A DNA stretch of 64,000 nucleotides. It comes from Sedimentisphaerales bacterium (GTDB lineage Bacteria > Planctomycetota > Phycisphaerae > Sedimentisphaerales > Anaerobacaceae). The stretch is from the NCBI GenBank assembly GCA_963708075.1, contig OY970194.1, positions 1,632,001 through 1,696,000 on the forward strand, read 5' to 3'. The notes under the pieces are model-generated. The model ran no database searches, had not been told where the DNA came from, and worked only from the letters and a program-made list of their open reading frames with translations. The translations under genes were made by a program, and so were the position numbers. Shown here one piece after another: positions 37,954-46,400 of the stretch (position 1 is the first letter of the stretch; each line of letters starts with the position of its first letter).

Positions 37954-38736
37954 ATGGACGTGAGCCGGTCAATGAAATTCGGTACGATGATACTCTTGGT
38001 TTCAACCGCTTTCATGGCGGGGTGTTTCCCTTCTAACCCCGAGGACATACAAGCGTTCGTCAAACCGTACGAAGTGAACGTCACGGCGGAGAACTACGTT
38101 CTGCAGCCGCCGGATGACATCGAAATCCATTGCACGCAGGTACCGGAGGTCCACCTGCAGCGCCAGCGGATACGTCCCGATGGCAAGGTCAGCTTCGAGG
38201 GGATTGGAGAGGTCGAGGCTGCCGGCAAGACCCCGGCGCAGGTCGCGACCATTCTGAAGGAAAAGATCGCCCAGTTGTATTCGGTGCCCGGCGACCACCC
38301 GGTCGACGTGCGCATCGCCGCCTATGGGAGCAAGGTGTTTTATGTGGTAGGACAGGTAATGCGTCCGGGGCCTCTGAACTACACCGGCCGTGACAGCGTG
38401 CTGACGGCACTGGCGGCCACGTATCCGAACCCCATGGCCTGGGAGGAGCGCGTGCAGGTGATCCGGCCGGCCGCCACCGAGGATGAGGTGCCCAGGATCT
38501 TCGAAGCGGACTTCAACAAAATGACCCAGCGTGGCGATACCAGCAAGGATGTACTGCTCCGGGAGGGGGACATCGTGTACGTTCCGCCGACTGTTCTGGC
38601 GGCCATCGGCATGGTTCTGGAGGAATTCATTACGCCAGTCGCCAGGGCCTTCTACGGCTGGTACCTGGTACAGAACCCGCCGATTTCCACCGATCGGGGC
38701 TATACTCCGACGGGCGGCAGTTACTGGGGCCGATAG
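37954..38736 (+). CDS. wza: Polysaccharide export lipoprotein (Wza-like, Poly_export + SLBB)
   Basis: Lipobox MAG-C; Y.LQP.D.I, IRPDGKVS, GEV.AAGKT, YVVGQV..PG, L..GDIVYVP. Confidence 0.85.
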   Translation: MDVSRSMKFGTMILLVSTAFMAGCFPSNPEDIQAFVKPYEVNVTAENYVLQPPDDIEIHCTQVPEVHLQRQRIRPDGKVSFEGIGEVEAAGKTPAQVATILKEKIAQLYSVPGDHPVDVRIAAYGSKVFYVVGQVMRPGPLNYTGRDSVLTALAATYPNPMAWEERVQVIRPAATEDEVPRIFEADFNKMTQRGDTSKDVLLREGDIVYVPPTVLAAIGMVLEEFITPVARAFYGWYLVQNPPISTDRGYTPTGGSYWGR

Positions 38737-38788
38737 GACCGGTGGCGTTCGTTTGAGCCGCCGCCCGGGGCCTCTGGGGGGCAAACAC

Positions 38789-39599
38789 ATGGCTGTAAGG
38801 CGTGCCTTGAAGTTGACGCACGTGGCCAGCACGATCTGGTTCATGGTGTGCGTTGGCTACATGCTCGTCCTGACCTTGCACGAGGTCGGCTTCAAATGGT
38901 GGCTCATCTTCTCCCTATCGGGCCATTCCGCCGTCGCCGTCGGCGTCCTGATCAGCGTATATTTGTTTGCGTTGGTCCGCGACATGGGCGGGAGCCAACA
39001 GATTCAGGTGGAGCACCCGTTCACCAGCACCCATTCCTACATGGGTTTCTACGTGGCGGCCCCCCTGCTGGGTGGCTTGGCGGGCATCTTCGGCATGATC
39101 GGCGCCAGCGATCTGAGCCGATATGCGGACGGTGTGGCGCGGGGGACCCTGGGGACGACATTTTTCGTCTGGGTCGTTCTCGACCCCGTGGCCGGTTCTC
39201 ATTGAGATCCTGCTGCCCGTCAGCCGCAGACACAGGGCCGAGCGGGTCGCCCGGGCGGAGCTGGAACGCAAAGCCCGCCAGCAGAAACGCGAAAAACTGT
39301 TGGCGGATGCGGTAGCGAGAGAGGAACAGGAACGCGAACGATGGCGACAGGTCCTGCAGCCGCAGGCCCAGCGTCTTGCCGCCCTGTTGGCAGATAATGC
39401 CTTGAGCGAGCATGCCGAGCAGGAAGCGGTCGATATTGGCGCCCGCGCATGGCATCTCGGGGGACTCAGTTGCATGCGCCAACTGCGCGAGATGGCCATG
39501 GCGATCAGCGAACAAGAAGCCGGTCCCGCAAGGGCGACCGATTATATCGCCTACTGGTGGGACGGCATTGGAGACTGGCGGCGCCCCTCCCTCGATTAG
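38789..39599 (+). CDS. Hypothetical membrane protein (4 TM + coiled coil + C-terminal WDGIG.W motif), frameshift near 39195
   Basis: TM half in ORF 38531-39205, continuation in 39123-39599. Confidence 0.6.
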
Positions 39600-39670
39600 A
39601 CCGCCGGCAAAGCCCTGATAGGGCACAAAATCAGGGTCCCGGCGCATACCTCCCCTTTGCAAATAACAAG

Positions 39671-39702
39671 GGGAGAAGATCGCATCCCTGCGACCTTCTC
39701 CC
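39671..39702 (-). terminator. Hairpin terminator between convergent genes
   Basis: GGGAGAAGATCGCA-TCCC-TGCGACCTTCTCCC; T-rich run follows on the minus strand. Confidence 0.6.
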
Positions 39703-39873
39703 ATCGCTTAACCGTACGTACTGTCACGGCAATCCACAAACGATTCAACTTATCGGCACGACTCGTGCTCCCTCTTAAGCTTCCGCCGAATTCAGATACC
39801 AAGAGCGCAGGAGGGAGCCCGCTTCCTTGCGACCTCCTTCCGATCTACCCCTGAGATCAGATCCCGCGCAGTG

Positions 39874-40572
39874 CTACAAAGCTCGCCGGCGTCGCAGCCA
39901 GCCGACCATCGCGGTTCCCATGCCAGCAAGTAGAATGGCACCGGGGGCGGGGGTCGGTGTAATCCTTCCCCAGAGCATGGCGGTGTTCGCGCCGTCCTCC
40001 GGTGACTGGAACTGCGATTCCAGGGTTGAAGGGCTAGCCCCAAACCCAAGGAGTTCCAGGGAGTACTTGTCCCCGCCGAGCATAAATGTCTGATGCGGCA
40101 TGGAATTCGGGAAGTAGATGAAGTCATCCGTTCCCAGTCCTGGCGTCTCGTTGATGTGGAACGTGAAGGTGGACGTCCCGCTGCCACTCGGACTGGAAAA
40201 GGTCATGGTGACCGCCAGATCCACCGCAGTGGCGTTTGACCCCGTCTGGATCTCATAGTTGAAGTGCGCTAACTCGCCGACCACAAAGGCGACGTCCTCT
40301 GTGACACTCAGCGGCCCAACCGAGCCACCGACAGCACCGGTGAAACCCAAGCCGCTCTGATTCGCCTGGTGATACGGCGTGCCCCAGCGGACCTGGTCCT
40401 GCAGCGTATTTCCATACGCTACTCCCACGCCGTCATTGTAGACAATGTCCACACCACCCACGGGATTGGACCATGCGCCATCGACAGCGCTGAGGGTCAG
40501 CGATCCCATGGCGGGACTGGCCGCCACGACCCACACAACAAACATCAGTGTCAACACTAGTAGCTTCTTCAT
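39874..40572 (-). CDS. PEP-CTERM-type sorted protein, choice-of-anchor K / THxN-like domain
   Basis: Signal peptide; VRWG.P, QSGLGF, LAHFN, F.INETP; tail PAPGAILLAGMGTAMVGWLRRRRAL. Confidence 0.85.
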   Translation of the reverse strand: MKKLLVLTLMFVVWVVAASPAMGSLTLSAVDGAWSNPVGGVDIVYNDGVGVAYGNTLQDQVRWGTPYHQANQSGLGFTGAVGGSVGPLSVTEDVAFVVGELAHFNYEIQTGSNATAVDLAVTMTFSSPSGSGTSTFTFHINETPGLGTDDFIYFPNSMPHQTFMLGGDKYSLELLGFGASPSTLESQFQSPEDGANTAMLWGRITPTPAPGAILLAGMGTAMVGWLRRRRAL

Positions 40573-40583
40573 CTTTTGTCTCC

Positions 40584-41057
40584 TTAAGCCTGCGGGTCCC
40601 TATTCGGAGTGAGCGTGAATTCGCCGCTGAACGGGTATGCAGGACACGTGCCAGCCGTGCGGGTGACCGTCAGGGTGGGCACAGCAAAGTCCGGGGCAGT
40701 CACAAGCAGCACCCAATAGGAAAACCGTTTCATCTGTTTCTCGTTGTTGATGCAGCAGATTTCGCAAATCCATTTGGAAAAGAGGGGCTTTTCGAGCCTC
40801 GGGGGACCGCGGGCCAGAGCAGATTGTGGAAATCCAGCTTCCTCTCGCAAAGCATTTCGTCGATCGCGATCAGTAGGGATGTCGCGACAAACCCCGTACT
40901 GAGACGCGGCAGGATGGGTCAATACATAGAGCTCGCCCGTCGAGGCGGCCAATTGCCTACTGCGGGTGCGCACAGGCAGCGCAGATACGATGCCTGTCAG
41001 CAGCCCACTACGCCATCCATGCGTAAGCGGGAACAGGGTTCCCCTGCCGAGCCACAT
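40584..41057 (-). CDS. Leader ORF 1, MW...RGPP at aa 83-86 (candidate arrest peptide; frame stays open to 40584)
   Basis: AAGGAGACGGGAG ahead of ATGTGG; RGPP codons 40811-40800. Confidence 0.45.
   Translation of the reverse strand: MWLGRGTLFPLTHGWRSGLLTGIVSALPVRTRSRQLAASTGELYVLTHPAASQYGVCRDIPTDRDRRNALREEAGFPQSALARGPPRLEKPLFSKWICEICCINNEKQMKRFSYWVLLVTAPDFAVPTLTVTRTAGTCPAYPFSGEFTLTPNRDPQA
40638..40654 (-). promoter_or_regulatory. sigma54 -24/-12 promoter upstream of PEP-CTERM gene 1
   Basis: CTGGCACGTGTCCTGCA (GG-N10-GC) about 65 nt upstream of the ATG. Confidence 0.65.
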
Positions 41058-41163
41058 CTCCCGTCTCCTTACGGTCGGATCCCCTCACTACCTTTTTGTT
41101 GTGCGGGCAAGCGCCCTGTGTCACGATCCGGGCGACTCCTCCAGCCAACATGGGATCGCCTGC

Positions 41164-41191
41164 ATCGTACACTGCGTGTCCCCCGCGTCAA
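41164..41191 (-). promoter_or_regulatory. sigma70-like promoter of leader 1
   Basis: TTGACG-N16-TACGAT. Confidence 0.5.
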
Positions 41192-41263
41192 GGGAAATCC
41201 AAAAAATGCAGGGAATTGTGGTTGCGCAGGGACCCCAGGAAATCCTGCAGCATCCTTCCAGGG

Positions 41264-41298
41264 AAAATAAAACGGGGCAGACTCGGAAGTCTGCCCCG
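41264..41298 (-). terminator. Intrinsic terminator of PEP-CTERM gene 2
   Basis: 11-bp perfect stem CGGGGCAGACT-N4-AGTCTGCCCCG followed by TTTTATTTT. Confidence 0.85.
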
Positions 41299-41335
41299 CG
41301 TGTGTATACGTGACTTCGTTAGACAGCCACCTGTA

Positions 41336-41977
41336 CTACAGGCTCTCACGTCTCCTGAGCCAACCGATCAGACTGGTGCCAATGGCAGCCAGAACGATCG
41401 CACCCGGAGCCGGAACAACCGGTGCCGGTGGCGGCGGTGGCGGAGGCGGATCCTGCTCGTACCAGTCCCACCTGTAGGTGACACTGAGCTGCGACCAACC
41501 CACAATCACGCCCGAACCTGTCTCACCGGTATCGATGTTGATGTCCACATCCAACATTCCATCCTCAAGACTGGCCAGAATGGCCGACAGATTGAATGTC
41601 GTCGTGGTCCAGGTGTCGGGAAGTCCCACCGGCGGCTTGACCAGATTGCCTAACACAGTGCCGTCAGCAATGATCTGGTCTGTCTCATCCGCTTGCCAGG
41701 CGTACACGGTCAGTGTAGCCGACTCGAGGGTGCGCACACCGGAGGCATCCGGAGACGGATCGCCAAGATACGTCACCGAATGATCCCAATCCCAATCCTG
41801 GTAGAAATACCGGTAACTGGTAGAGTTGTGACTAGGGCTGGCGCCGGTCGCCAGGAAATAGTTGCCATCAGTACCGAAGTTGGCAGTATCTCCTACCGTG
41901 TCCGGCAGCGTCATGGGGCCGGCTTGCGCCACCCCCATGGCCAGTAACACACTGGTCACCAACGCTATTCTTCGCAT
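41336..41977 (-). CDS. PEP-CTERM-type sorted protein with 8-Pro linker
   Basis: GGAGG SD; signal peptide MRRIALV...AQA; DPPPPPPPPAPVVPAPGAIVLAAIGTSLIGWLRRRESL. Confidence 0.85.
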   Translation of the reverse strand: MRRIALVTSVLLAMGVAQAGPMTLPDTVGDTANFGTDGNYFLATGASPSHNSTSYRYFYQDWDWDHSVTYLGDPSPDASGVRTLESATLTVYAWQADETDQIIADGTVLGNLVKPPVGLPDTWTTTTFNLSAILASLEDGMLDVDINIDTGETGSGVIVGWSQLSVTYRWDWYEQDPPPPPPPPAPVVPAPGAIVLAAIGTSLIGWLRRRESL

Positions 41978-42366
41978 AACTCCTCCATACTTCTCTTCCC
42001 CAGATCCGGCCATTCCGTCCACTGTTCGCGGCCTCGGCTGCACGGGAATCAACGTCTCCCGTCATCACCGAACTCCTTCGAACGCGCGTCGTTTCCGAAA
42101 CGATCCGAATCCAAGTCCGAGACTCGATACACGGTCAAGCTTTCAAAGGCTCCGTCCCCCCCGCCGCAGAGACGACCGTATCTCTCAGAACGACGAAGGT
42201 GTTTCGACACTCCTTTTTTCAAGGCGTTGACATGTAATGAACTGTTCCACTCACTAACGCCCAGACTCCGTGGTGGACGATCACATGACACTTCCACTTT
42301 CTCGACGAAAGGGCCTTGCGCACTGGCCCTTGCCCAGAGAGCGCATGTGTTGGTGTCGCAGCGGCG

Positions 42367-42627
42367 CTACGGAGGCCCACGTGGCACCTGCGCAGCCACC
42401 GGCTGAGACACGGGAGGTAAGTGTGGGTTTGAATGCCAGGTCATACTCAGGAATAAACGCCGCAGTGCGTTTTGGAGGCTTTGATATACGCGAGACAGGT
42501 TGGGAAGGACCCCGCCGGCCGGCAGGCAGAGCAGGTCGAAGGCTGCAGTAGAGGCATCACTGCCCAGAGGACGAGGGCCGGCACCGCCTTCCGCAGAAAC
42601 GGAAAGGGCCCGTCCATCACACCACAT
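42367..42627 (-). CDS. Leader ORF 2, 86 aa MW...RGPP-stop (candidate arrest peptide)
   Basis: GGGAGA ahead of ATGTGG; alternative in-frame GTG at 42648 after GGAGGAGG; ends VPRGPP*. Confidence 0.55.
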   Translation of the reverse strand: MWCDGRALSVSAEGGAGPRPLGSDASTAAFDLLCLPAGGVLPNLSRVYQSLQNALRRLFLSMTWHSNPHLPPVSQPVAAQVPRGPP

Positions 42628-42804
42628 TCTCCCGCTGTTTTCCAGCACCGCTCCTCCTCCTAATCCAATGCCCGAACGCATATCATACCGATGACGATCC
42701 CGCGCTCGCGCACAATCAGGAATTCTTCCTTCTCCTGATACGCTTTCCCTCGAAATAAGTAGCGGTGGGAGCCCTCCTCCAGTGAGGCACCAACTATACA
42801 ATGC

Positions 42805-42834
42805 ATTCTATACTTGGTATCCGCCTGCCGTCAA
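42805..42834 (-). promoter_or_regulatory. sigma70-like promoter of leader 2
   Basis: TTGACG-N16-TATAGA or N18-TAGAAT. Confidence 0.5.
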
Positions 42835-43161
42835 GGACTTTCTCGGAAAATGGCAGAAATAGTCCACCCACCGTGGTCTTCAGAATGCATCGCGACCTAG
42901 CGCCGGGGATACTGCACGGCGTGTTGATACTTCATGTTGTTATACCATAACACTGGTACTATTTATGTGGTAGACATGGAGTGTGACGATACTGATTGGT
43001 CACAAGGGGAATGCGTAGGGTGCGGCAGGATGTGACAGAGGAGACTGGCCCCCGCCTCTACGGCCGATGGAAGGTGGGCGAGCAGATGGCGGGAGCGATG
43101 AAGTGTCCAAGAGGAACCGTTGAGCCTGGTCCGGCGCGGGCGAGGCCATCAGGCTGTACCG

Positions 43162-43470
43162 CTATTTCGCCTCGCCAAGGAACTTCAGAAGCATGTTGAT
43201 CTTGTCTTTGACTTTGATTTTGCGGTAGATATTGCGGATATGGACCTGCACCGTGGCAGGTTGGATATGGAGGGACTCAGCGATGCGGCTGTTGCGCAGC
43301 CCCTGGCACGCGAGGTCAGCGATCTGCACCTCCCGTGGGGTCAACTCGTACCGGCTCCGGAGAAAGGACCATTGGCGCTCGCTGAGCACGGAGAGGGCGC
43401 GCCCCTGCCCCGGCCGGTCCGTGACCGGGCGGTCCGGTTCTCGGGCATCGAGCGACCGGTCCATCATCAT
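43162..43470 (-). CDS. Stand-alone LuxR-type HTH regulator
   Basis: LTPREVQIA.L...G.RN..IA..L.I...TV.VHIRNIY.K; no receiver domain. Confidence 0.88.
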   Translation of the reverse strand: MMMDRSLDAREPDRPVTDRPGQGRALSVLSERQWSFLRSRYELTPREVQIADLACQGLRNSRIAESLHIQPATVQVHIRNIYRKIKVKDKINMLLKFLGEAK

Positions 43471-46400
43471 TGGCCTTTCAGCAGTTGATCAAGGAGAAGC
43501 CTGGCCTCAGCCTGGTCCTCGGGCGGCAAGTGTCTTGCCGGATCCATCGCCTCCTTGAGGGCCTGCTGAGCCTGCGTGGTGCGCCTCATCTTGGCATACG
43601 CGCGGGCCAGATGGAAATACGCGCTGGCCAGTGGCCCGGCATTTCCCGGATACAGTTCGACGCACCGGGCCAAGTCCTCCGCCGCCTTTTCGGATTGCCC
43701 CAGCCGGTAGAGGATGACTCCTCGTGTCTCCAAGACGTCCACGTAGTGCGGCGCAATCTTCAGTCCCTTATCCGCCAGTTCCAGCGCTTCCTTGTACTGC
43801 CCGTTCTGCTCACAAAGGGCCCAGGCTAGATTGTTCAAGGCAACAATGTTGTTCGGGTCCAGTTCAAGAACCTTCTGGTTCAGCGCGACGGCTTCCGCTG
43901 TGCGTCCCATCTGCTGCACCAGCATGGCGAGGGAGGTCACGACGGGGATAGACTTCGGTGTGCGCTGCGCGGCCGCCGTCAGGAGGCTCTCGGCCATTTT
44001 GATCGCCTCCGGACTGCCCTGCGCTGAGAGCGAGCGGGCCACAGTCGAGACAACGAAGCCGTCCTCAGGATGCTTCGCGACCCAGTTCGCCACCTGCTCG
44101 GCTACTTCCGTCCAGCGTTCATCCGAGGCCAGCAGGGCCGCCAGCGTCGCCGGAGGGATCGGATTGTTGGGCTCGGCCTTCATACGCGCTTCGAGAATGG
44201 ATCGGCCCTCGGTCCTGTTCCCGCTCCTGTACAGAGCCCTGGCCAGACGTCTCTCGATCTGGACGTCATTCGGATACTGTTCCAGCAGGGTCTGCAACGT
44301 GGGCGCCGCCAGTATCGGGGAGCGAGCTTCTTCCGCGTCGGCCTTGAGTAACAGCAGATCCCTGTCCCGCTCATTGTGGCTCAAGCCGCTCAAAGCCATA
44401 TCCAAGGCTTTTCCGGGTTGCCCTTGTTCTAACTCCAATCTGCCCAGCAGATGCCACGCCTGCGATAGTTGCGGCCGAGATACCGTGATTTCCCGCAACA
44501 GCCGTTGTCCCTGAGTGATAGCCGGCCTCGTGCCCCTGCTCAGCAGGAACTGCGATTTCAGGAGCTTGAGCCCGGGATCGTTCGAATCGGCGGCACAGGC
44601 CTTATCGAGCGTCGCCTCGGCCTCCTGCATCAGCCTGGGACTGCCGGAAGCCAGGCACAGTGGAATCGCGTCATTCAGTACGGACGGGTTCCTCGCGGAC
44701 AGGTCCAACGCCTTGCGAACGTCCTGGATGGCCTCGTCCCTGCGACCGATGGCTTGGTGGAATCTGGCCCGTGCCACCCGGGTGCCGGCGTTGTCCGGGG
44801 CTTTGGCGACGGCCTGCGCGAAATCCGCCGACGCCTTCTCGTATTCTTGCAGGCCGACATAGGTCCGCGCGCGCAGCAGATACGCAGCCGCGTGGTCGGT
44901 CTTCTGTACCATTTCATCGCACAGCCGCACGGCGGCCTGCGCGTTCCCACGAAGCATGTGCAACTGGACCGTGGCTTGAGCAATGGAAATAGACTGGGAC
45001 ACCTTGGCCTCAAGCCCCTTGAGAATGACCTCTGCGTCATCGAGCTGGCCCTGAGCCATGTAGATGGTTGCCAGAGCCAGTCTGGAGTCCACGTCGTTCG
45101 GCTCCTTCCGAACAAGCTGCTGCAGGGTACCCGAGGCGGAATCAAAATCGCCGCGGCGCGCCTGGTCCCGCCATCGCATCCTCTGGCCCTGCAATTCAAG
45201 CTTCTCGAGATCCGGATGGTAAAGCTGCCGCTCGCCGGCCTGTTTGAGAATTCGCTCCGCTTCCTCCTGCTCGCCGTTCTTTTGGAGGGCGGCGACCGTC
45301 TGCATGATGATGACGATGTTATTGGGTGCGCGCCTGAGCGCTTCCCGGTATGCCGACAAAGCCAACTGCTTCTGGTTGGCCCTGTCATGCGCCGCCGCGA
45401 GAAGCAACCGGCTCGCCTGGTCGTTTGGATTGGCCAGCAGGTTCTCCTGCAGGAGCGCGGCGGTTTGCGTGTAGTAACGGGCTCGGAAGACATTCGGATC
45501 CGCAACCATAGCAGGATTCACCCAGACTCTAGCCTGCTCGTACCGCCATTGCCAGCCGGCCTGCCCCTCCAATGACTTGATCCGGTCTACCAGCGTCTGA
45601 GCCTGCTGAGCGTTCGCGACGACAGCAGGACATGTTAGAAGCTGGCGTTTGACCTGAATATCGTTTGGGAATTGTACGGCCATATCCGTGAGCCACGGGT
45701 GCAGATCACTCTCCCTCGACCAGAACCGATACAGGGAAGCCAGAAGCAGTCCAAGGTCACGCCGGGCCTCAGGCGACTGCATCCGTGCGATCGCCTGCTT
45801 GATCACGGACTCGCATTGCTGCGGATCTTTCTGCCGGTTGAGCAGCAGGGCAAGAGTCTGCACGGGCTCGATCACTTGAGGGAACTGCTCCGTGGCCCCG
45901 CGCCAGAGCCGTGGCCTCCGCAACCTTGTCCTGGCCGGCCAAAACCTCAACTTCCATAAGGGTCGCCCGGAGGTCCGAAGGGTTCTTGCTGCGCATCTCC
46001 TCCAGGAGCTTGACGGCCTCAGCAGCTTTGCCCTGTCTGGTCATGGCCTGGGCCAGAAGGAACTTGACCTGGACAGATCCCCCCATCGCCTGATCGACCT
46101 GTGCCAATTGCTTCTCGATCTCCTGCCAGGCCTGCTCGCGATTTGGCGTCGATCCATCGGCTTCCGCCAGCAGGAATATCCGACTCTGCAGCTCCAGCAA
46201 TATCGCTTCCGCGTGGCCGGGGATCAGTCGCTGCACTTCGCGCGCTTGCTCCAAAGCGCCGGCCCAGTTTCTTGCGCGAATCATCAGCCGGGCCAGGGTC
46301 AGCCGGCCCTCGACGCTCGTGCGATCCTCCGTGACCAGGGTTTGCAGTTGAACGTTCGCGGACTGGAGGTCACCCAGTTGGGCGTACGTGGACGCGAGCA

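Follow-up and report, generated by a model that had tools for sequence, protein, structure and literature searches.

Conserved upstream ORFs ending in Arg-Gly-Pro-Pro precede PEP-CTERM genes of a Sedimentisphaerales bacterium and are candidate ribosome arrest peptides

Organization of the locus

Two genes for PEP-CTERM proteins, PEP1 and PEP2, and the open reading frames (ORFs) upstream of them, ORF1 and ORF2, were analysed in a stretch of 64,000 nt from a Sedimentisphaerales bacterium (assembly GCA_963708075.1, contig OY970194.1, positions 1,632,001 to 1,696,000), which is called the window below. All coordinates are window positions unless another sequence is named. Both upstream ORFs (uORFs), both genes and their leaders were on the minus strand (Table 1). 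Each uORF carried the motif Arg-Gly-Pro-Pro (RGPP), and comparison with close relatives suggested that ORF1 and ORF2 are ribosome arrest peptides placed before exosortase cargo genes. PEP1 matched NF038125 with 88.4 bits (cut-off 85) and NF038131 with 106 bits. PEP2 gave 15.3 bits with PF07589, under the cut-off of 20.7, and was among the genes with a C-terminal match to a hidden Markov model (HMM) of 31 local PEP-CTERM tails. An exosortase gene was present in the genome (PF09721, 3.6e-60).

A first-pass annotation, made from the letters of the window, had reported that both uORFs start with Met-Trp (MW) and reach RGPP at residues 83-86, that ORF2 stops there and that ORF1 stays open. Translation agreed. 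ORF1 (41057-40584) and ORF2 read from ATG 42627 (to 42367) both started with MW and had RGPP at residues 83-86. The stop codon of ORF2 followed RGPP immediately, and ORF1 ran for 71 codons beyond RGPP to a total length of 157 aa. From the end of the motif, the distance to the next gene start was 66 nt (remnant of a PEP-CTERM gene, called B) and 228 nt (PEP1) for ORF1, and about 390 nt (PEP2) for ORF2. The TAA stop of ORF1 overlapped the Shine-Dalgarno sequence of PEP1, 11 nt 5' of the PEP1 ATG.

Table 1. Features of the locus, in window positions
Feature	Position	Strand	Remarks
ORF1	40584-41057	-	functional part 41057-40800 (86 aa, through RGPP); then open to TAA 40586-40584
ORF1 RGPP codons, candidate arrest site	40800-40811	-	CGC GGT CCC CCG
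Promoter 5' of ORF1	41164-41191	-	TTGACG, 16 nt, TACGAT
'B' PEP-CTERM gene remnant (MKRFS...PFSGEF.LTPN)	40584-40733	-	49 codons, in frame with ORF1
PEP1, THxN-family PEP-CTERM protein, choice-of-anchor K domain	39874-40572	-	232 aa
Terminator-like hairpin after PEP1	39671-39702	-	sequence scan
ORF2-type uORF	42367-42648	-	probable GTG start 42648, 93 aa, TAG 42369-42367; Shine-Dalgarno AGGAGGAGGAG
ORF2 RGPP codons, candidate arrest site	42370-42381	-	CGT GGG CCT CCG
Promoter-like site 5' of ORF2	42805-42834	-	TTGACG, 18 nt, TAGAAT; 10/12 hexamer matches
Stem-loop about 25 nt 3' of ORF2 stop	42296-42343	-	-20.5 kcal/mol, 17 pairs
Conserved non-coding leader, ORF2 to PEP2	41978-42366	-	389 nt; identity 0.54-0.94 in 20-nt bins
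PEP2, PEP-CTERM-tailed secreted protein	41336-41977	-	213 aa
Intrinsic terminator after PEP2	41272-41299	-	-23.8 kcal/mol, z -6.6
PrsT-like tetratricopeptide repeat (TPR) gene	45950-43467	-	TIGR02917 225.7 bits, under curated cut-off
Small LuxR/EpsA-like helix-turn-helix (HTH) gene	43470-43162	-	under curated cut-offs
Export protein	37954-38736	+	TIGR03027 78.7 bits, under curated cut-off

The two leaders had been described as a pair. As homologues they did not hold up: direct alignment and a repeat search of the two leaders found zero nucleotide homology, and hhalign found zero profile-level protein similarity between ORF1 and ORF2. The first-pass annotation had also noted the absence of a signal peptide. 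The hydropathy scan agreed, with Kyte-Doolittle maxima of 1.08 and 1.57 for ORF1 and ORF2 and no 15-residue window at or above 1.6; 2 of the 7 ORF1-type sequences described below attained 1.6. The Pfam search gave no family match for ORF2, including SecM (PF06558) and DUF2946 (PF11162). For ORF1, the single match was at chance level (PF16988, 14.6 bits against a cut-off of 27).

The upstream frames are conserved as far as the motif

With PEP2 as the query, 10 metagenome contigs were found, and 9 of them aligned over the leaders at 72-96% DNA identity. L081 was omitted, its match being confined to the PEP-CTERM tail. The ORF1-type frame was open from the ATG to Ala-Arg-Gly-Pro-Pro (ARGPP) in all 7 sequences, with protein identity to the window as low as 32%, and the ORF2-type frame was open in all 6 sequences that covered ORF2, with protein identity as low as 46%. 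In the ORF1-type sequences the ending ...SA[LV]ARGPP was invariant (7/7) and the body was fast-evolving. The codons of ARGPP varied synonymously (CGC/CGT/CGG for Arg, GGT/GGC for Gly, CCC/CCA/CCG for the first Pro and CCG/CCT/CCC for the second). In the ORF2-type sequences the C-terminal third was kept (LQNALRRLFLSMT..SNP.LPP.....A.V.RG[PS]P). The motif was RGPP in 8 of the 9 sequences and RGSP in the other (L076), and was followed by the stop or by a 3-residue tail. These results suggested that the motif of both ORFs is selected at the amino-acid level. The orthologous leaders did not lack a conserved ORF or an Arg-x-Pro-Pro (RxPP) motif, the finding which the first-pass annotation had named as speaking against its proposal; both ORFs and the motif were conserved.

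The indels gave a consistent picture. From start to motif they were of 3, 3 and 18 nt (ORF1-type) and of 3, 3 and 6 nt (ORF2-type), and past the motif they were of 2, 3, 5 and 5 nt (ORF1-type) and of 1 and 2 nt (ORF2-type). The tail past the ORF1-type motif was 4-24 aa long in the relatives. Since indels came in multiples of three before the motif and in arbitrary lengths after it, the selected reading frame effectively ends at the motif. An arrest peptide would be expected to leave such a pattern. The first-pass annotation had allowed for compensating assembly indels and pointed to an alternate-frame string, CLCAPAVG, which was indeed present in the ORF1 DNA. This explanation fell away, as the independent, 96%-identical contig L072 had the same frames and distant relatives kept them.

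Other details of the first description did not survive the comparison. Two ORF1-type relatives started with MR or MS instead of MW. The motif stood at residues 78-81, 83-86 or 85-88 in the ORF1-type sequences and at 81-83 in the ORF2-type sequences, counted from the ATG. Because start residues and motif index varied in the relatives, the shared MW and the exact position 83-86 were taken as coincidence. The position of ATG 42627 was ACG in the ORF2-type relative L074. The GTG at 42648 and its Shine-Dalgarno sequence (AGGAGGAG; listed as AGGAGGAGGAG in the feature table) were retained in 6/6 ORF2-type sequences, and conservation climbed sharply at 42660, just 5' of this GTG. ORF2 therefore probably starts at GTG 42648.

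It was considered whether the uORFs are chance ORFs in GC-rich leaders that contain RGPP at an equal position by coincidence. RGPP occurred 695 times in six-frame translation, the GC content at third codon positions of ORF1 and ORF2 was 0.57-0.59, which is not gene-like, and the equality of position was not conserved. A 4-mer shared at the same index was found in 0.7% of 400 random trials with pairs of ATG-started ORFs, and in 13.8% of random trials when ATG, GTG and TTG starts were allowed; with the latter value, the statistic was suggestive and not decisive alone. The case beyond chance was decided by the conservation in close relatives rather than by this statistic. Frame and motif were kept in 7/7 and 6/6 sequences and recurred in other loci and families, and a chance origin is hardly credible.

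The region downstream of ORF1 differed among the relatives. Gene B was full length in L073, L074 and the genus relatives. It was cut at an identical point in the window, L072 and L080 and was followed there by the PEP1 cassette, which has its own Shine-Dalgarno sequence. In L073 and L074, the ORF1-type uORF and the PEP-CTERM gene after it overlapped by stop and start codon (TGA and ATG, in ATGA), an arrangement that allows termination-reinitiation coupling.

A separate observation concerned the interior of ORF2. At about 42436-42480 (about 45 nt), identity was 0.93-1.00 in 20-nt bins, compared with about 75% elsewhere in the relatives, and a small hairpin (AAACGC...GCGTTT) lay within the block. 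The block thus seems to be constrained as RNA or DNA in addition to its coding constraint.

Longer upstream ORFs of the genus end in similar motifs

The Shine-Dalgarno/start island of ORF1 was kept in 6 genomes of the genus, where it opened an ORF of 244-291 aa. These longer ORFs were called group A, and matches to them were found in 13 of 23 other genomes of the genus. Of the ORF1 leader, the group-A loci shared no more than this island and the beginning of the downstream gene, and the island appears to link ORF1 to group A. The group-A motif was A-R-[P/G]-P-P in 13/13 loci, with synonymous codon variation and a tail of 0-52 aa. It was located 74-80 nt before a PEP-CTERM gene starting with MKRF in all 11 measured loci; L021 and L027 were omitted from the distance and pairing counts for group A, the start-codon anchor not having been found in them. 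These proteins had two hydrophobic segments, one N-terminal and the other with KNRR behind it, as well as a variable linker.

Another explanation is that the window ORFs are nonfunctional, decaying relics of longer group-A-type genes, having lost the signal peptide and membrane segment and being kept only by recent descent. ORF1 has nothing but the start island in common with group A and falls about 160 codons short of its length, the gene after ORF1 is itself a remnant, and profile searches assigned neither ORF1 nor ORF2 to group A or to the second group, A2, described below. ORF2 has its start, 'VLE.SGR', in common with a group-A-like ORF of 231 aa that occupies the equivalent place behind the LuxR gene in genome G018. 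However, the short forms were open and their motif invariant at DNA identities down to 72% and protein identities down to 32%, with indels of multiples of three alone. Such conservation is unexpected for neutral relics, and we therefore regard the relic explanation as very unlikely.

Two PEP-CTERM genes elsewhere in the same genome were preceded by ORFs of about 200 aa, which ended in ...LAPRGPPGMS and ...LASRGPPDLAHE. This second group, A2, was found in 14 of 23 other genomes of the genus with up to 4 copies each. There were 30 matched loci, of which the ORF filter returned nothing for L049, L056, L063 and L071. L053 and one ORF of L061, cut by contig ends, were left out of the counts, and L061 and L070 duplicated L047 and L066. 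The 22 unique complete members comprised 13 with RGPP and 9 with RAPP. In locus L069 the C-terminal motif was absent. A gene with a signal peptide followed 21 of the 22 members at 81-155 nt, and 19 of the 20 downstream genes shown had PEP-CTERM-type tails (VPxPGA...LRK). In a collection of 5.8 billion proteins, A2 corresponded to 255 clusters, all of them unnamed and without a Pfam domain; among the best 120 of the 255 clusters, the motif was RGPP in 98, RAPP in 21 and QAPP in 1, with tails of 1-25 aa. Among 400 other genomes sampled from the phylum, with only 7 candidates scored in each, the A2 profile matched none. Group A and A2 likewise gave no match to a Pfam family, including PF06558 and PF11162.

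A2 proteins contained the conserved internal blocks LCLYAL and WYHDGGPxQIGHSHAISPDC and a block next to the motif, LWRKSQF.P..LAS. Proteins of both groups showed an N-terminal and a mid-protein Kyte-Doolittle peak. AlphaFold2 gave no confident fold for an A2 protein (mean predicted local distance difference test score, pLDDT, 47). The nearest named clusters in the ESM Atlas were DUF2946 and SecM, with a language-model neighbour score of 0.82, which we treat as a lead only. The His/Cys-rich block WYHDGGPxQIGHSHAISPDC lay between the membrane segment and the motif, at about columns 150-175 of the A2 alignment. It recalls the Cys/His metal sites predicted for some arrest peptides of Streptomyces lividans in PMC12992588.

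One of the A2 leader ORFs and its PEP-CTERM cargo gene had the exosortase gene directly upstream (genome positions 2028930-2029982; L041 2934-3983, minus strand). This exosortase matched PF09721 with 3.6e-60, and its best NCBIfam matches were XrtD and XrtA, under the subtype cut-offs.

We also compared the leader proteins with the tails of the cargo proteins. With --max and Z=65718, the HMM built from 31 local tails aligned to 11 of the 13 group-A proteins from HMM position 11, over residues of about 54-111, with scores of just -2.6 to 10.6 bits and independent E-values of at least 1.2. Its scores against A2 were at most 2.1 bits. A likeness between the internal segment of group A and the cargo tail (PDGPGAVCLGVLGFVCVSLVKNRR and PAPGAVLLGSLGLGVVGWLKRRR) was seen by eye and had no statistical support.

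The four groups (ORF1-type, ORF2-type, A and A2) were alike in position, each candidate arrest ORF being on the same strand as its putative target gene and directly upstream of it. The group-A profile searched against the own genome matched neither ORF1 nor ORF2. The tblastn search of the families against the window found nothing significant past start and motif (best E 0.005 in a search space of 3.4 kb), and hhalign detected no homology among the four groups. The region adjacent to the motif was conserved inside each group (SA[LV]A in the ORF1-type) and unrelated between groups.

RGPP and RAPP are avoided elsewhere in the genome

In the long ORFs of the genome, RGPP and RAPP occurred at 0.40 and 0.39 of the expectation from composition, a depletion of about 2.5-fold, and the control motifs AGPP and AAPP occurred at 0.85 and 0.76. 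The depletion matched the exclusion of these motifs from proteomes that is reported in PMC12992588. uORFs with the motif preceded 4 of 40 PEP-CTERM genes and 30 of 1634 control ORFs with signal peptides (Fisher p 0.008). Without one doubtful case, the count was 3/40 (p 0.04). ORF1, which reads through past the motif, was not counted.

These data bear on the idea that the uORFs encode small proteins with a function of their own in the exosortase/PEP-CTERM system, membrane-associated in the long forms. RxPP would then serve in the finished protein, for example as a site of binding or processing, instead of signalling a stall that controls the next gene. The A2 blocks LCLYAL and WYHDGGPxQIGHSHAISPDC are conserved outside the C-terminus, gene callers list A2 as hypothetical proteins of about 200 aa (255 clusters), and one A2 copy comes directly after the exosortase gene. 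A finished protein of this kind does not fit well with the avoidance of RGPP and RAPP in the rest of the genome, with the low pLDDT of the A2 model or with the short forms of the window, which retain just the region adjacent to the motif. With a tail of 0 to 52 aa past the motif, whose frame shifts between relatives, the distance between motif and C-terminus is not constant. We consider the small-protein explanation unlikely.

Leader RNA structure and transcription

The first-pass annotation had placed a hairpin after each motif. The one at 42309-42331 proved to be real, as the tip of the 17-pair stem-loop at about 42343-42296 (z -1.56), which was kept in 9/9 sequences with 3 compensatory pairs. 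The one at 40778-40800 was no better than shuffled sequence: it had a 4-bp stem with z +0.44, and 133 of 200 shuffles folded at least as well. Attenuation by a terminator, which had been part of the same proposal, found no support. At 42317, in the loop of the stem-loop, the window lacked a GC dinucleotide that was present in 8/8 related contigs and in RNA-library contigs of 4 runs. This difference was confined to the loop, and no reading frame was touched.

The 389-nt leader between ORF2 and PEP2 was better conserved than the middle of ORF2 (20-nt bins), and the alignment of the relatives contained no conserved ORF in any frame of it. The consensus fold of this leader had -119.9 kcal/mol, and 18 of its 129 pairs were compensatory. 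The Rfam scan of 38000-45000 gave a sole sub-threshold match to tfoR (21 bits against 70, E 0.11). This match sits on the PEP2 terminator and was treated as chance.

The first Pro codon of the motif was CCT in 21/22 A2 loci and in 8/9 ORF2-type sequences, compared with a genome-wide CCT usage of 12.6%. CCT at this position creates CCUCC, the predicted partner of the cargo Shine-Dalgarno sequence. Pairing of the motif codons with the cargo Shine-Dalgarno sequence was predicted in 10/21 A2 loci. When a stalled ribosome was modelled in A2, the mean Shine-Dalgarno accessibility rose from 0.38 to 0.50, a calculation without shuffle control. A stable hairpin was present 3' of the stop in most A2 loci. 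A long-range pairing of CCUCCG in ORF2 with the Shine-Dalgarno sequence was predicted by RNAalifold; single-sequence partition functions gave it in 0/6 cases, and it was rejected.

Control could lie mainly in the RNA, through structured leaders and an anti-Shine-Dalgarno CCUCC, and the frames would then be only carriers or serve translational coupling. The conservation of the 389-nt leader without an ORF and with a covarying stem-loop is in its favour, as are the block of about 45 nt in ORF2 (about 42480-42436; identity 0.93-1.00) and the CCT bias and predicted pairing just described. However, the ARGPP codons of the ORF1-type vary freely and never form CCUCC, and the frames are kept open by indels of multiples of three. 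The Arg of the motif varies just synonymously and the small residue synonymously or between Gly and Ala, and there was no match to an Rfam family. As the main explanation, RNA-level control is decidedly unlikely. It is compatible with the arrest model and not exclusive of it.

TTGACG promoters had been proposed 5' of both uORFs, and both sites (42834-42805 and 41191-41164) were found. The TTGACG and TAnnAT hexamers of the ORF1 promoter were retained in 7/7 aligned sequences (the window and 6 relatives). The site 5' of ORF2 was weakly conserved, with an identity to the window of 0.39-0.44 in 20-nt bins of the relatives. The scan found 3 TTGACG-type sites compared with 1.3 +/- 1.1 in shuffles, so that the count alone was not significant. 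As an additional observation, the promoter-like sites of three leader ORFs (genome positions about 4607830-4607870 and 2028530-2028570; window 41164-41191) had a common extended -35 context, CC-TTGAC-[A/G]-C-GGGG, which may point to one regulator or sigma factor.

RNA-library contigs (4 runs from 2 studies) extended from the interior of PEP2 over the leader and the RGPP codons of ORF2 as far as 42469. Their cover excluded 40142-41281 (ORF1 and the 5' part of PEP1) and 42536-43200, and these gaps are uninformative. Because RNA libraries can hold DNA, the support for co-transcription of ORF2 and PEP2 is weak.

Elsewhere in the genus, the spacer between the LuxR gene and a PEP2-like gene (L030 5771-7100, L037 5005-7376 and L038 5200-6620) was 1.0-2.3 kb long and conserved across all three frames. 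An RxPP ORF was absent from these three spacers. This points to a non-coding element.

A model of arrest before exosortase cargo genes

We propose that ORF1 and ORF2, located before exosortase cargo genes, are ribosome arrest peptides of the RAPP/RGPP type reported by Fujiwara et al. (2024/2025), and put the probability of this reading at roughly 0.6. Both would be translated, and their selected feature would be the C-terminal Arg-Gly-Pro-Pro together with the preceding 10-35 residues. Both appear to belong to a genus-wide set of RxPP-ending uORFs that precede PEP-CTERM genes. The observation of the first-pass annotation was thus partly confirmed and its interpretation partly supported. The tie between arrest leaders and PEP-CTERM genes stood, with conserved motif and layout in A, A2 and two further loci of the own genome; this kind of system, which that annotation did not know to be described, is already in print.

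In the proposed mechanism, the ribosome would stall on the RxPP of the leader. As is established for this motif in other bacteria, the nascent chain would end with Arg-Gly-Pro in the P site, Pro-tRNA would occupy the A site, and the bond would fail to form. The parked ribosome would then alter the options of the leader RNA downstream. It may free the ribosome-binding site of the cargo gene, as in SecM, MifM and CutF, or alternatively shield the transcript against premature termination. Rho shielding of the TnaC type is such an alternative mechanism. In groups A and A2, the hydrophobic segments could couple stall release to export or membrane insertion, and in the short copies of the window the stall may be constitutive.

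Several points weigh against this proposal. An RxPP motif alone does not suffice for arrest, and RPPP, the group-A motif, was not depleted in the genome (0.93 of expectation). By hydropathy scan, window ORF1 and ORF2 had neither a signal peptide nor a transmembrane segment, which leaves the usual force-release logic nothing to act on. The candidate stall sites are about 390 nt from PEP2 and about 228 nt from PEP1, the latter across the remnant. Masking of the Shine-Dalgarno sequence by the motif was predicted in 0/6 ORF2-type, 2/7 ORF1-type and 2/11 group-A leaders, and CCT was never used for the first Pro in the ORF1-type. The stalled-ribosome model, again without shuffle control, lifted accessibility by more than 0.1 in just 10/21 A2 loci. 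The consensus fold from the group-A motif to B was weak (-5.5 kcal/mol, 1 compensatory pair). Just about 1/10 of the PEP-CTERM genes in this genome were preceded by such a uORF. As the four groups are without detectable homology, their treatment as one system rests on motif, position and architecture.

A wider version of the proposal is speculative and rather unlikely as a whole. Here each exosortase cargo gene of the genus would carry a nascent-chain sensor. The leaders of A and A2, with a signal peptide and a membrane segment resembling the sorting tail, would report the state of the route from Sec to the exosortase and switch the cargo gene by an RxPP stall. The short forms without a signal would be a derived version, hard-wired or released in another way, and CCU-CCN would double as an anti-Shine-Dalgarno sequence, covering the cargo ribosome-binding site as long as no ribosome is parked on it.

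Relation to published arrest peptides

RAPP or RGPP is found close to the C-terminal end of small secretory or membrane proteins whose ORFs lie upstream of genes of varied function, including those for a TonB receptor, copper-related, DsbA-type and other proteins, and seven arrest peptides were validated in S. lividans (PMC12992588). Upstream ORFs of sec and yidC genes were the subject of Fujiwara 2024 (PMC10987492). During the stall the P site is occupied by the third codon of RAPP/RGPP and the A site by the fourth, and the stall is resistant to elongation factor P (EF-P) (PMC12992588, PMC10951233). RGPP gave the strongest arrest, the change of Ala to Pro (RPPP) retained it partially (PMC12992588), and RGSP and QAPP occur as natural variants (PMC12992588, PMC10987492). 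The variants RGPP, RPPP, RGSP and QAPP seen here appear to fit this mutagenesis. Groups of RAPP-type peptides are described as lacking mutual sequence similarity outside the motif (PMC10987492, PMC12992588), and the non-homology of our four groups in hhalign matches this. For CutF, a stem-loop melted by the stall is the regulatory model.

The candidates resembled the set of Fujiwara 2025, which includes CruR of Bordetella, in having R-[AG]-P-P near the C-terminus of an ORF of less than 300 aa, directly upstream on the same strand, with a variable N-terminal part and a motif excluded from the proteome. The N-terminal hydrophobic segment of A and A2 is also found in most published members. In contrast to that set, the targets here are PEP-CTERM cargo genes, and the window copies are without a localisation signal.

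ApdA, ApdP, ApcA and the 'RQH' family are reported to be located upstream of secA, secDF and yidC (Sakiyama 2021; Fujiwara 2024, PMC10987492). They share with our candidates the C-terminal RAPP/RGPP/QAPP core, a lineage-specific adjacent region, a patchy distribution restricted to genera and dissimilarity between groups outside the motif. However, they monitor the Sec or YidC machinery whose gene follows, and the gene that follows our candidates encodes a substrate of a sorting pathway and not one of its components. The exosortase-adjacent A2 copy follows the exosortase gene and precedes the cargo gene.

Like DUF2946, CutF and CruR, the candidates combine an exported leader, a Pro-rich C-terminal candidate stall site and a stem-loop before the regulated gene, and A2 has conserved His and Cys residues; unlike them, none of the ORFs here matched PF11162. 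The likeness to SecM of Escherichia coli lies in the long distance between a signal peptide and an R-A-G-P-type site downstream of it, and in a stall proposed to unmask the next Shine-Dalgarno sequence. RGSP, which PMC10987492 reports from a SecM homologue, occurs in the ORF2-type relative L076. The differences from SecM are the lack of a PF06558 match, the presence of RGPP/RPPP instead of RAGP and the absence of a signal peptide from the window forms.

The words 'PEP-CTERM' and 'exosortase' had 0 occurrences in the main text, as distinct from figures and supplements, of PMC12992588 and PMC10987492. The literature search found no paper that joined 'PEP-CTERM' and 'arrest peptide', and neither 'exosortase' nor 'PEP-CTERM' occurred in the 15 papers ranked highest in a further search. 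This kind of system is published; its link to exosortase cargo appears to be new.

To our knowledge, the regulation of exosortase/PEP-CTERM systems is largely uncharacterised. If the stall is real, it would be the first regulatory link of arrest peptides to exosortase/PEP-CTERM sorting. It would also provide a large testable set of RGPP/RAPP/RPPP arrest sequences from Planctomycetota, with more than 255 clusters in addition to the short forms, and the preference for CCU as the first Pro codon gives a handle for separating peptide effects from RNA effects. The variants without a signal would bear on how RAPP-type arrests outside Sec/YidC are released, a question raised in PMC12992588.

Neighbouring genes

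The PEP genes and their leaders lay between an export protein gene on the plus strand and the LuxR/EpsA-like and PrsT-like genes on the minus strand (Table 1). With all scores below the curated cut-offs, these neighbours (37954-38736, plus strand; 43162-45950, minus strand) recall an XrtA/PEP-CTERM exopolysaccharide locus.

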